Part shown: positions 2,496-51,256 of the stretch, piece by piece
How the letters are laid out: the number at the start of each line of letters is the position of its first letter
Position numbering within the stretch: the first letter of the stretch is position 1
Assembly: GCA_964016885.1 (NCBI GenBank)
Contig: OZ024742.1
Coordinates: 157,170,001-157,234,000, forward strand
Origin: Eledone cirrhosa
Taxonomy: Eukaryota
Reading direction: 5' to 3'
DNA length: 64,000 nt
Notes under the pieces: model-generated
Seen by the model: only the letters and a program-made list of their open reading frames with translations
What the model was told of the DNA's origin: nothing
Database searches by the model: none
Position numbers and translations under genes: made by a program

Positions 2496-2690
2496 AACGA
2501 ACGAAATGTGGTAAGGAACCAGGTGGACCCTAACGCACCAAAGTACTCAATACTTGGGGGTAGTAGAGTGGGTACAAGGAACCAGTAAGACCCCGACGGC
2601 TGAGCTCAAGCCGCTTCGACGGCTAATTCTGGACTCCAGAATTAGCCGTCGAAGCGGCTTGAGCTCAGCCGTCGGGGTCTTACTGGTTCC
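2496..2690. mobile_element. Mini fold-back insert in (TA)n: perfect 56-bp-arm palindrome (2578-2690) plus ~80-bp tail, carrying the 3' half of an HHR
   Basis: Arms are exact reverse complements around C2634. Each contains GAA(G)-cggct-tgagctc-agccg-TC-ggggtc. A related copy lies at 48961-49060. Confidence 0.8.
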
Positions 2691-2701
2691 TATATATATA
2701 T

Positions 2702-3842
2702 ATATTGGTAAACGGAATAGAAAATTCTGACAAATTGTTCACAGTGAAAAATAGTTTAATTAGGAATAAGTGATAATTAGTAATAGTATTGGTTAGTATT
2801 AAGTTTTGGTTTTGAGTTCTAGCGGTTGCGCATTACTAATGCTTTTCAAAAATAATTCTGAGATAAAGCGTCCGTGATGTTTGCTCTGATCTGATTAGTT
2901 TTGGGAATTCTACCTGTTTTTATGTTAAAAAAGTGGCTCCAGCGGTATTAAAATAAGTTTTGCGCCAATTCGTGTTGCACAAATTCTTGTGGTCAAAACA
3001 ATTTTGATTGGTCGGTAGAGGTCATGTGAATGTAAAAAAATGATTTTGCGCCAAATGTAGGTTTGTTTCGGCTGACTGAGAGATAAGTCTTTCACAACAA
3101 ATATGTGTGTGTGTGTTTAGTGGTAGTAAAGAGGTTCGTTGTTGTGATAATGGTCAGCAGGGATGTGTGTGCAGACAAGAGACAAGCTGTCAAAAGACAT
3201 GGGCTGAAAAATATATTTTAACATGTTAAAATATTCCCCACACACTTACAGACACACTAACATACAAAGACAACACACACACACACACGCACACACACTT
3301 GTCTTAATAGGCATTTGAACTGTCAACAGGCTGCGGTTCGCACACACATCCCTGCTGACCATTATCACAACAACGAACCTCTTTACTACCACTACACACA
3401 CACATATTTGTTGTGAAAGACTTATATCTCAGTCAGCCGACACAAACCTACATTTGGCGCAAAATTAATTTTTTACATTCACATGACCTCTACCGACCAA
3501 TCAAAATTGTTTTGACCACAAGAATTTTTGCAACACGAATTGGCGCAAAACTTATTTTAATACCGCTGGAGCCACTTTTTTAACATAAAAACAGGTAGAA
3601 TTCCCCAAACTAATCAGATCAGAGCAAACATCACGGACGCTTTATCTCAGAATTATTTTTGAAAAGCATTAGTAATGCGCAACCGCTAGAACTCAAAACC
3701 AAAACTTAATACTAACCAATACTATTACTAATTATCACTTATTCCTAATTAAACTACTTTTCACTGTGAACAATTTGTCAGCATTTTCTATTCCGTTTAC
3801 CAATATATCATAGCGTGTGTGTTACACCTCTATTATTTTTAA
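2702..3842. mobile_element. Large fold-back insert in (TA)n (arms ~2702-3172 and ~3339-3807, 35-bp tail)
   Basis: Two ~470-bp near-identical inverted arms; the right arm extends 35 bp further. A related single arm lies at ~42225-42430. HHR-variant motif at 3656-3691. Confidence 0.85.
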
Positions 3843-4022
3843 TATATATATATATATATATATATATATATATATATATATATACATATATATATACATA
3901 TGTGTGTGTGTGTGTATATGTGTGTGTATATATATATGTATATATATATGTATATATATATATATACATATATGTATGATAAAGAACACAAGAGCGTCTA
4001 CAACATCAAAATATTTTTATTG

Positions 4023-4067
4023 GCTTACAATGTTTCTTCCTTACGTAACAATAGGATTCGTTAGAGC
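4023..4067 (-). ncRNA. Degenerate type I hammerhead motif at the end of a probable PLE 3' fragment (~3975-5290)
   Basis: Minus strand reads gct-CTAACGA-atcct..aggaa-GAAA-cattg-TA-agc; core has G5A. Confidence 0.5.
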
Positions 4068-46730: not shown

Positions 46731-48791
46731 ACACTCTATGCTGTTAACTTAAAATTGTGTGCTTATTGTATGTAATGATATAAATCAGCAGACGCATTGA
46801 TGTAAGTTGAAATAGAACGAAAATTGCTAGAAACACATAAAGGTAAGACGGAAGAAGGAAACAAGTCATCTGAAAAGTATGGTGATATATGCTACATAAA
46901 ATGAACATTAAAAAAACATAAAATAATTTAATGCCAGGCAGTCATTTCCCTTGGGATGAAAATCCAAATTATAATAATATAACAGCGAATTACAAAAACA
47001 ATACATATATATATATATATATATATATATATATATATATATATATATATATATATGGTGATAAAAAGTGGCAAAGAGTACGATTATAGATATATATTAT
47101 TTCAGTAGGTGAAACGTTATTTCACACTGGTCAATACAGAATAAAAGTGATAAATCATATTTTCCAACCAGGGAAAAAGAAAATCAGAAATGTTAGTATA
47201 TTAGAAAAAATATCGTCTTAAATAAATATATGCAAAATTGATAGTATTATATTGTCAATAAATGATATAAGATTTAGACAAATAAGAAATACTGATATGT
47301 GAGGCTGCAAATAGATATATATAAAACCGGTATTTTAAATTACAATTATATTAAATTGGATTTGGACAAATGGATAATATTGATGGTGATAATAAATGAA
47401 AGAACCATATTCAGAGGGGTACACATATGAACACGTGTTACCTAGTTACATAGCCGACAATCGAATCAAATCCCGATTTTTAAATGGAAGTTGCGAACAG
47501 CAGATAAGTTTACCAATGGAACCATAAATCTTTTGATCTGACCTACCGATGGGCTTCTTTCAGCTTTAATAGTTCAGCTAATTAAATATCATTTGGTGCA
47601 TTTTTCTTTAAAATGTTCATGCAGTTTTCGTGCATAAAATTTCTAGTACGAAATCCTAGATGAATTTCCTGGGAGATTGAAATAATCTATATGACGTTTG
47701 TACGTTTTATTTACATTGAGGTATAACTGATGTGCGATATGTGAAGTAACGGGTATAAATATCATTGAAACACAGATGGTTAGTGGTGTAAAGTTCATAC
47801 TATATTGTTGGTAACTAAACTAAATTAATGGAAATATTCACTAAGATTTAAAGTATATTTCTCAGAACGTGGATACGTCCGAGTATAGAGGCGAATGTGA
47901 GTTCAAACGTCTTGAGCAGTTGCACTGCAACATAGAATAGAGTAAGAGAAGATATCGGTAGGCTTACTTTATATTCTCCGTAAAAGGAGCAGACCTCAAA
48001 ATGTGTCTGCATTCATTATCGTTATAACTCAAATAACTGAAACCCTTCAATATTCTACGATCTTGGTTTTACGTTTGGTTTCGACGCTGATTGACTAGCA
48101 TCCATGCATATCAATATTTACCCAAAGATGAAAATCAAACGTATGACATACATTTCTGTTATCAACTGTAATGTTGTCCTCAACAATCTCCAAAATGACG
48201 CATTTGACAATCTCTCCTCAGTCGAAAGAAGTTTTATATATGTGAAAATATTTGTGAAGTTGACTAAGCTAACACTCACTATATATACATTGATATATAT
48301 AAATATATAGATATATGCACATATACATACATGTATATGTATACGTGCGTAACAATTGCAATATACCAATAATGTTTATATGTAGGGTCATAAGTTGACG
48401 AAATGGACGTACATATTTTACAACAGTACCGAGGGTATTGCTGGTTGCTGCGGTATCACAGTGTCTGACAAAGTTGTAAAATACTGTCCGCGGTGTTTAT
48501 GGTGAAAACCAAACCCAAGGAAAATAATGATTACGCGTATCGCGTTAAATCTACGAAATTTAAGTCATACAATACATGACGAAATGAGTCAGTTAGACCT
48601 CGAGACGAAGGCACACACAATGAGGCAGGCAGATAACGAGAAACTCAGAGACGAAGATCGTGCTTCTTTTATAACATCGGTTAGACTTGTCACTTTACAG
48701 GCAAATGTATATATATATATATATATATATATAATATATATATATATATATATATATATACCATAACCATTAAATTGATTAGACATTTATA

Positions 48792-49246
48792 CCATACCTT
48801 TATTTTGATACAGATACTCCGTTTTACACCATCTAGCTGTTCCCATAAATGGAATCGGAGATATACAAAAGCTTGGAGAACTTAATATTGCTAACAAAAG
48901 TTTATTGGACCGTTTGACACAACCAATAATACACCTTACTATATATATATATATATATATAGGAACGAGTATGATCCCGACGGCTGAGCTCAAGCCGTTT
49001 CGACGGATAATTCTGGACTAGTCGAAACGGCTTGAGCTCAGCCGTCGGGGTCCTGTTCCTATATATATATATATATATATATATATATATATATATATAG
49101 TAAGCTATATTATTGGTTGTGTCAAACGGTCCAATAAACTTGTGTAGGCAATATTAAGTTCTCCACGCTTTTGTATATCTCCGATTCCATTTATGGGAAC
49201 AACTAGATGATGTAAAACGGAGTATTTGTATCAAAATAAAGGTATG
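48792..49246. repeat. Inverted duplication (~150-bp arms) centred on a (TA)n array that also holds a mini HHR-half fold-back (48961-49060)
   Basis: 48792-48942 is the near reverse complement of 49096-49246. The inner insert has GAAA-cggct..agccg-TC. Confidence 0.85.
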
Positions 49247-49683
49247 GGATACACTTCTAATAATTTTAATCACGACACATATTTCAATAAGATACAAATC
49301 GATCGTGCGGCCATGATCGATTATCACTGATCTCGTCAGGTGAAAATGAATTGTCTTCAAATCCTTGACATGAGGGAGAACATTTAACGATGTTCACTCA
49401 CTAGAGTTTTGTCACCCATATGAAGTTTAAGCAGCCAAAACACGCCGACCGCTTTCGTCCTCAATTAGGGTCATAAAACTATTAAGTCTCTATCTCTCAA
49501 TAGCTGTAAAAGACGCTGGATGAGTCAAATCTTTAGAATTACAATCGGTCACAGTTAGTGTGAGTGAGTACACACACACTCGCACAAATTGACGCGAGGT
49601 CGAAGAAAAACTTATATATATACCAACATAGTATTCACCGAAAGTTAGTTTACAAAACAACAAATATATATATATATATATAT

Positions 49684-50213
49684 AAATTTTGAGTATATTT
49701 TGGTTGTGTACCAACATTTCACTATGCAGATTGGAGAACTCGACGAAGTGCGCAGGTTGCTTTGGTCACTCCGTAGTAATGTAAAATAAAATAAAATAAA
49801 TAAGTCAAATGTTTAAAAGATGGCTTCGTTTATTACTGCTATATATATTTCGGTGACAGCCATCTTTGGCTGTGACTTCTTCAGGCAGTCCAAATTAGTG
49901 TGGTATAGACAAGTACACATGTTGTTGAGGTGTATAACTTTGTCAATACACCGATATGCCCAGTTCCTGGTTGAGTTGTTGTTTCATTCAGATATGATTC
50001 CAGTTCCTCAATGAAACAACAACCCAACCAGGAACTGGGCATATCAGAGAATTGACAAAGTTATACACCTCAATAAGATGTGTACTCGTCTCTAACACAC
50101 TAATTCGGACTGCCTGAAAAGGTCACAGCCAAAGATGGCTGTCACCGAAATATATATAGCAGTAATAAACGAAGCCAAATTTTAATCATTTGACTGATTT
50201 ATTTTATTTTACT
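49684..50213. mobile_element. Family F fold-back insert, copy 2 (HHRs at 49836-49888 minus and 50109-50163 plus)
   Basis: Arms ~49781-49989 and 50010-50213; same tail as 29015-29110. Confidence 0.9.
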
Positions 50214-51256
50214 TTATATATATATATATATATATATATATATATATATATATATCTCCAAAATTAAGATAAATCAAAATGGATTTAATCTAAATCAAAA
50301 TTATGGGTGTCATGCCAGAAAGGCATGCGCCATATCACCCGTAAAATAAGCTCTAAGATTCTAATGAATAGGTCCGAGCATTTTATAACAACTAGAAGTT
50401 CTAGTTAACTTTATTTAGTTACCTACCTAGCTATGTGTGCTTACACACTTGTAAAAATTAGCCCCTGTGATTGTCTCATATGTTTATTTATATGTTAATC
50501 AATTTCTAGTTGTTATATATATATATATATATATATATATATATATATATATATATATATATATATATATATATATATATATATATATATATATATATAT
50601 ATATATATATATATATATAAAGAAAAAGAGATGAAATCGAAAATGCAACTGGAGTCTTATTTCTTTTAAAAATATATATATTTATTATTGGTTCCTTTAC
50701 CGGTTTCGCAGTTCTTCTGCTTTTCAAAAATGTATATGTATATATATATATACATATAAATATGGCACACAAGTAATACTGTTTCGGGGTGTTTTCTTTT
50801 ATTTACATAGATACACGCATATACACGTGTATATGTTTGGATGAATTCGATTTAACCAATTTTCTTTCCTGCATTATTTGCCCATACTCATTCCGTCCAT
50901 TTTTATTGACTTCTCCCTCGTTTTATTCTGTTCACTTCACGTTCACCAATCACCATCGGATTCGGCAATATCTTTGCCGTATACCTTCATTTAACTCCTT
51001 CATACCTATCTATTATTCATACTAAAACTTTCTATGCACTGAAAGAAATAATTAAGAAAAAAATCAATATTTTCTTTAAGCAGCCATCAATTTTACCTAC
51101 AGGAAAGAAAAAATACTTTTCATTGATTTTAATTCAAACTAATGCCTTTTAGTGTATGAACATTACACAGATTTGGGAACATTCTACAGGTGATTTATCA
51201 AACGTGCTGTCCGATCATTTCAACTTGTTAATAGGTAAAGTATATCCATTGAAATG

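Follow-up and report, generated by a model that had tools for sequence, protein, structure and literature searches.

Paired-arm, one-tailed insertions of Penelope-like elements in (TA)n tracts of Eledone cirrhosa and their probable origin from two priming sites

How do Penelope-like elements (PLEs) come to be inserted as inverted, 5′-truncated copies with a tail at one end only, and how do they choose microsatellites as targets? Both questions were named as open by Craig et al. (2021; PMC8557442), whose account includes (TA)n as the target, an inverted 5′-truncated copy and, at one end, a tail of 30–40 bp; both are raised by a stretch of 64,000 nucleotides from Eledone cirrhosa (GenBank assembly GCA_964016885.1, contig OZ024742.1, positions 157,170,001 to 157,234,000 of the forward strand), the whole of which is called the window below. 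A preliminary description of this DNA had recorded at least 11 inserts made of two inverted arms whose 3′ ends point outward; self-comparison, together with reading of the sequence, bears out all 12 coordinates that it listed. The inserts are 5′-truncated copies of several families of endonuclease-containing (EN+) PLEs. Probably, a (TA)n tract was cut, its two ends primed on the same RNA species, each at a site of its own, and the two cDNAs were then joined.

Inserts of the window and their recurrence in the genome

The 12 inserts are given here with their hammerhead ribozymes (HHRs), some of which have a variant core (U3-A8), and with linked open reading frames (ORFs). Inserts and families are named by the measured start of the insert; the preliminary coordinates 2496, 16334, 16540, 29015, 31050 and 49684 correspond to 2497, 16336, 16544, 29018, 31049 and 49685. 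Handles beginning with L denote loci.

2497–2690: fold-back of 194 bp from a Hydra-type PLE family; tail 2497–2577, arms 2578–2690; 3′ half of an HHR only; (TA)n on both sides
2705–3841: fold-back of 1.1 kb; arms 2705–3172 and 3340–3803 (97% identical), right tail of 33–38 bp; HHR-like variant; linked to a Neptune-like endonuclease (EN) at L290
15934–16194: fold-back; tail 15934–16001, arms 16002–16194; U3-A8 minimal HHR at 16097, minus; (TC)n at the right end
16336–16527: fold-back of 192 bp; arms 16336–16459, tail of 68 bp; HHR beginning at the fold centre (by eye)
16544–16820: fold-back; tail 16544–16613, arms 16614–16820; no recognisable HHR
16862–17243: fold-back; tail of 66 bp (about 45–50 bp shorter than in other copies), arms 16928–17243; degenerate HHR in both arms; right end outside (TA)n, in AT-rich non-repeat DNA
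25684–27461: Hydra-clade fold-back; tail of 161 bp, arms 25845–25947 and 27359–27461 (99%); U3-A8 HHR with short stem I
27492–28006: fold-back of 515 bp; arms 27492–27969, tail of 33–37 bp; partial HHR-like motif; no linked ORF
29018–29489: Hydra-type fold-back of 472 bp; tail of 91–96 bp; each arm with a full HHR, at 29217 (minus) and at 29387 (plus); coding copy at L061
31049–37027: fold-back of 6 kb; arms 31049–33443 and 34623–36987 (94%), tail of 40 bp; HHR variant by eye
39575–42208: old fold-back; tail 39575–39668, arms 39669–39918 and 41999–42208 (78%); full HHR at 39771, minus
49685–50214: fold-back of the 29018 family; arms roughly 49779–50219 (89%); degenerate HHRs

Both ends lie in (TA)n in ten of the 12 inserts, in keeping with the “nearly always” of the preliminary description, the right ends at 15934 and 16862 being the exceptions. 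The tail, placed earlier at 35–160 bp, measures 33–161 bp and is found on one arm; total spans run from about 192–194 bp (16336, 2497) to 5,979 bp (31049), agreeing with the range of about 0.2 to 6 kb given before, and arm identity is 77–99%. The inserts represent 11 families, since those at 29018 and 49685 are one; “many unrelated families” was an overstatement, every family that can be linked to an ORF being a PLE. The first 51 kb of the window contain 92 (TA)n tracts, and stacked inserts share such tracts, two at 2.4–3.9 kb (2438–3884) and four at 15.9–17.2 kb (15923–17243), so that each insertion provides targets for the next. The pairing of the 2497 and 2705 inserts is seen again at locus L183. 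An apparent pair at 10708–16698 was discarded, as it links two separate inserts.

The same end pattern was sought in a genome sample of 59 ten-kb stretches at round coordinates (590 kb in total, of a 3.0-Gb assembly), as complexity-filtered inverted repeats with one end at most 5 nt from (TA)n and the other 20–200 nt from it. It is shown by 22 of 66 inverted repeats with a gap of up to 500 bp, against a mean of 0.385 and a maximum of 3 in 200 rounds of random placement, which bears out the proposed enrichment at (TA)n; the remaining repeats belong to no class (32), have one flush end only (nine) or have both ends flush (three). With gaps above 500 bp, 8 of 47 repeats match. After removal of one double pairing (the second pairing in L076), 29 pattern-matching inserts are counted, which occupy about 4.5% of the sample (paired arms 1.7%); mass production of palindromes, as had been proposed, is thus seen.

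Palindromes can come from read chimeras, and an assembly or library artefact would produce them in this way; such an origin is scarcely conceivable here, as the arms differ by 1–23%, the ends follow family-specific sites, and the joints recur in independent data. In raw RAD (restriction site-associated DNA) reads of three other samples, strand-switch joints lie at the same places (1484–1746, 1486–1742), each covered by 27–59 reads that begin at one or two points, and 787–920 reads show (TA)n behind the tail end; contigs of short-read runs with other organism labels change strand inside two families. Contigs aligned to 25400–31100 contained no empty site and no piece across a whole insert, which is uninformative either way. 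The inserts are real and abundant, and not an artefact.

It is also very improbable that the palindromes are transposed into TA sites as whole units, whether as miniature inverted-repeat transposable elements (MITEs) of DNA transposons or as fold-back elements. Their TA flanks and the many near-identical short palindromes of the 2497 family would suit such elements; against this, symmetric terminal inverted repeats and a fixed internal structure were not found: the ends are asymmetric, the centres vary between copies, long copies contain reverse transcriptase (RT) and GIY-YIG domains, and among the 29 sampled inserts HHRs point outward in nine and inward in none.

End sites, arms and template

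Family copies were collected by sequence searches, and the counts refer to the best 25–30 loci of 79–2,891 candidates per search. For six families, 217 of 224 arm ends coincide with either the tail end or a single internal site; (TA)n comes next in 208 of the 224. One site of each kind is used per insert: 44 of 46 fold-backs from three families consist of one tail arm and one internal arm, in a set of which 11, the window's own copy among them, were obtained with a tail-containing query. One of the two exceptions, L155, is a locus-edge artefact resolved by L286, the other (L132) begins at an intermediate site; three more families, inspected by eye, gave no clear homotypic pair.

The two arms are independent of each other. 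The tail arm reaches further 5′ in 23 of the 46 fold-backs, the internal arm in 19, and both equally far in four; in L043 the tail arm (−44 to 0) and the internal arm (−317 to −91) have no common sequence, so neither is a copy of the other. These facts argue against a single cDNA copying itself. Self-priming, possibly on an antisense template, was proposed for EN+ PLEs by Arkhipova et al. (2013; PMC3846280), whose head-to-head arms, optional tail on one arm and junction palindromes are all found here; the arm statistics, unlike that proposal, favour two primers. Were one cDNA (or RNA) folded back and copied as a hairpin, with the second end coming from EN cleavage at a fixed site, one would understand that the centres cluster at short palindromes, as they do near −321, a hot spot of the 29018 family, and that one centre is common to most of 30 copies of the 2497 family, for which the query contained the centre. 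However, that common centre is found with the tail on either side, and the internal end shows the TA overlap of a primer site (see below), which makes self-priming an unlikely explanation.

The two arms of an insert also share their template. Shared non-majority variants in the 29018 family amount to 0.89 per 100 nt within inserts vs 0.09 between them (0/1000 permutations); the corresponding values in the 25684 family are 1.06 and 0, a weak result (p 0.047, four pairs), and in the 2497 family subfamily variants are present in both arms. Self-priming, too, is compatible with shared variants. At locus L061 (G000:C1:40902500–40912499) lies an 8.2-kb fold-back with halves 96% alike and part of the ORF in reverse; its halves have a common, unique EN-to-tail junction, yet different end sites, which suggests a second-generation insert, that is, read-through RNA of an older fold-back which was retrotransposed and copied twice. 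Taken with one-of-each pairing and non-overlapping arms, the shared variants uphold the two primers and the head-to-head joining of the preliminary description.

Alternatively, two ribonucleoproteins with separate RNAs could occupy the two cut ends, an asymmetric dimer setting one site per end and the common variants going back to few source loci or to later conversion. The 31049 family, which has no within-insert excess of shared variants (0.20 vs 0.16, p 0.29), accords with this, as does the overlap of the arms on the template, which would demand strand displacement on a single RNA. Against it stand the tenfold excess in the 29018 family and the fact that the two halves of L061 have their unique junction in common, with the limit that one molecule and two transcripts of one locus are indistinguishable; on balance, separate RNAs are decidedly unlikely.

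At the internal site, the overlap with TA averages 3.05 nt vs 1.0 (37 inserts) and is at least 3 nt in 13 of 22 families (10.8% expected), which supports short annealing of one primer at an internal position, as had been suggested. The companion claim, that the other primer anneals at the RNA end, did not survive: tandem and full-length copies, with 0–5 TA-like bases at the tail-end point, continue past the tail into the ORF, so the tail end is not the end of the RNA. Both sites are probably internal starts within a longer RNA, as reported for PAc, the Poseidon protein of Anolis carolinensis (Frangieh et al. 2024; PMC11167929). This PLE protein, for which a dimer is predicted, nicks and extends both strands in vitro; start occurs at a stem-loop, and two internal RT start sites bound the tail, as they do here. 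For PAc, no difference in start site between the strands is reported, whereas the ends of the inserts take different sites in 44 of 46 cases; inverted insertions are not dealt with in that report, the one in vitro study.

A candidate start signal is found next to the sites. In 10 of 22 families, against 1.6 expected, RCTCY occurs no more than 20 nt from the internal site; RCTC…GAGYRC, a pattern composed after the tails were seen, does so in 11 of 22 (0.1 expected). The longer pattern is confined to tails of at least 65 bp. Behind the tail end it is seen again in two families, those of 29018 and, with one mismatch, of 25684. There is, in addition, a recurrent start point within the tail, found in full-length copies and very short tail arms (L061:2678, L286:2087, L032, L043, L127), at −42 to −46 in two families (−42 in L061) and at −99 in L286; it is a candidate for the RNA 5′ end. 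As to the joints, 13 of 36 scored fold centres have an overlap of 0 nt or more, eight of these at least 2 nt (null 17%).

When L1 undergoes twin priming, a single RNA is primed by both target strands, and an inversion results once the cDNAs are joined; the internal site taken by the second primer varies, and the two cDNAs are without overlap. The PLE inserts differ in that both sites are fixed and the arms overlap, which results in a palindrome. For these, we infer that the GIY-YIG endonuclease, probably as a dimer, would nick both strands of (TA)n, and that each 3′ TA end would be placed on one of the two start sites, possibly of a single RNA molecule, with 0–8 nt of pairing. The tail would be the distance between the two start sites; the cDNAs would terminate early and be joined via short microhomology, blunt ends or filler. 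In Hydra-type families with long tails, the start may be positioned by a small RCUC…GAGY-RC stem that follows closely downstream.

Several observations weigh against priming of both ends on one RNA species as set out here. A mini insert at 48962 has two internal ends and is a counter-example to the one-of-each rule, and nine of 27 distinct copies of the 29018 family lack a partner within 1.5 kb. The variant excess is missing in the 31049 family, as said, and gene conversion between arms could be another source of shared variants. Nine of 22 families have less than 3 nt of TA overlap, two of them none; the start of PAc takes place without target homology (PMC11167929), whereas the internal site here shares about 3 nt with (TA)n. 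Finally, 23 of 36 fold centres are filler or mismatch under a conservative rule.

A more far-reaching version holds that asymmetric twin priming is obligate in EN+ Penelope elements, with a different start for each DNA end and palindromes as the normal product; this we put forward tentatively, being slightly more doubtful of it than convinced. One complex would then cut both (TA)n strands and load one RNA with two start signals, which in Hydra-type families might be the RCUC…GAGY-RC stem, repeated a few bases downstream of each start.

Coding copies, clades and hammerhead ribozymes

The PLE origin claimed for the inserts is confirmed by their longer copies. RT together with a C-terminal GIY-YIG domain is encoded in the 31049, 25684 (L286), 29018/49685 (L061) and 2497 (L086) families, EN only in the 2705 (L290) and, as a fragment, in the 39575 family; the coding copies or ends of these six families are those of PLEs, and no ORF was linked for the 16336, 16544, 16862 and 27492 families. 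The 31049 insert matches PF01541 of Pfam (E 3.6e-7 and 7.7e-7) and RVT_1 below the cut-off (E 0.004); Pfam gave no match for the Hydra-type fragments of the window, and a homolog search with the RT of L086 gave 18 matches, the sole names among which are misannotations and none of which is informative. The pseudo long terminal repeats (pLTRs) occur in partial tandem or inverted with a one-sided tail; inverted pLTRs and a 3′ tail, called PLE hallmarks in the preliminary description, are indeed published as such (PMC8557442, PMC3846280). Target-site duplications are unreadable within (TA)n.

Further PLE features of the window, and elements of other kinds, are the following.

26191–27108, minus: GIY-YIG-type ORF fragment inside the 25684 insert
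31625–32284, minus, and 35773–36432, plus: decayed RT and CCHH-type GIY-YIG in both arms of the 31049 insert
34174–34624: internal pLTR plus tail of the 31049 insert, continuing into the ORF
7741–9295, minus: Hydra-type PLE ORF fragment outside the listed inserts
18289–20350, plus: Hydra-type PLE ORF fragment outside the listed inserts, with a full HHR at 20263, ending at (TA)n at 20351
42783: HHR of canonical appearance (12-bp stem II) that has a (TA)n tract on either side and belongs to none of the 12 inserts
48962–49059: mini fold-back, 2497 family, that lacks a tail and stops at the internal site on either side (read by eye and by homology)
50620–50729, minus: lone arm from the 15934 family; end in (TA)n; U3-A8 minimal HHR at 50727
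5891–6012: (TA)n-centred inverted duplication, 100% identical over 37 bp
48769–49270: (TA)n-centred inverted duplication, 83% identical; its central tract contains a PLE mini insert
51376–64000: three decayed non-LTR (LINE-type) RT copies behind (AAT)n or A-rich tracts

The (TA)n-centred duplications, found elsewhere in the genome at L080:8843–9119 (a 47-bp unit three times, in alternating orientation) and L109:6884–7025, form a second class of palindromes, short and centred on the (TA)n tract itself; they possibly result from snap-back repair of breaks in (TA)n. The three LINE-type copies show neither (TA)n targeting nor a fold-back.

Several families resemble the Hydra clade as described in PMC8557442, the supplement of which lists an octopus family, Hydra-1_Obim. 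Common features are RWK, DKT, CxCx5C, an EN without CCHH, an HHR near the 3′ end, (TA)n insertion and the inverted 5′-truncated copy noted there for Penelope-13_HM. L286 (25684 family) contains RWK, DKT, YRDD and CxCx5C; L061 (29018 family) has RWR and DKT and an EN without the cysteine pair. In L086, a longer copy of the 2497 family with RT, CxCx5C linker, GIY-YIG and, by eye, a full U3-A8 HHR, RWK and DKT were not seen, the N-terminus of this copy being missing. The CxCx5C linker is combined with an EN without CCHH in 26191–27108, L286 and L086, and (TA)n follows 31 of 31 arm ends in the 25684 and 39 of 44 in the 29018 family. Unlike the 30–40 bp reported for the clade, Hydra-type tails here measure 81–161 bp, and some HHRs have the U3-A8 core; the families are likened to the clade by its described features. 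The 31049 and 2705 families, both with the cysteine pair in EN, are by these motifs members of other clades: Neptune/Nematis motifs (CX2-5CxxC linker, CCHH EN) are present in L290, and the 31049 family has a CCHH-type EN with an incomplete linker, as judged by motif comparison alone.

Most inserts had been said to carry an HHR, which depends on the strictness applied. Three of 12 (15934, 29018 and 39575) pass a minimal-HHR descriptor and the 49685 insert does so with one core mismatch; by eye, 11 of 12 have a full, variant, decayed or half motif, and the 16544 insert has none by descriptor or eye, nor was one seen in its family. Strict scans having missed U3-A8 and short-helix variants, this descriptor was loosened to follow Cervera and de la Pena (2014; PMC4209133), and it recognizes seven motifs in the window vs 0–1 in 20 shuffles. 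Type I (minimal) hammerheads in sense orientation within the pLTR, a feature of EN+ PLEs, are thus present. Rfam found no hammerhead family in the window; its 73 matches, all below the gathering score and almost all of them miRNA models on hairpins or microsatellites, were rejected as noise. The HHRs are like the minimal PLE hammerheads of PMC4209133 in their long stem II, short palindromic helix III and U3-A8 variant, and in the occurrence of motif pairs 100–700 bp apart on opposite strands; unlike those, they are known from sequence, and many copies are interrupted by the fold centre or decayed. Tandem arrays of non-coding HHR monomers, which characterize non-LTR retrozymes, were not found in the window, and families with long copies are coding, unlike retrozymes, an argument that extends to the families other than the four without a linked ORF.

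Known parts, new parts and consequences

The inverted arm, the tail, the HHR and (TA)n targeting are already published PLE hallmarks, and most parts of the proposed mechanism are in print. For the one-of-each rule, the stem signal, and twin priming or two primers in PLEs, no paper stating them was found by a search outside of which lay subscription papers and the PAc supplements. From the mechanism first sketched for the window, PLE origin, two primers, head-to-head joining, short TA annealing and palindrome production are retained, and priming at the RNA end is given up.

The rules read from the genome give the PAc assay sharp predictions: starts at two fixed sites with one for each end, a template common to both arms, brief pairing with TA, and a candidate signal for the start. 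At about 4.5% of the sample, the inserts matter for assembly and for repeat annotation, as they mimic MITEs and miRNA hairpins, and possibly for the load of double-stranded RNA. The palindromes number about one per 20 kb here, by extrapolation roughly 1.5e5 per genome; if twin priming is indeed obligate, they would be its normal product, and hairpin DNA and double-stranded RNA would have in them a large source that has gone unrecognised.

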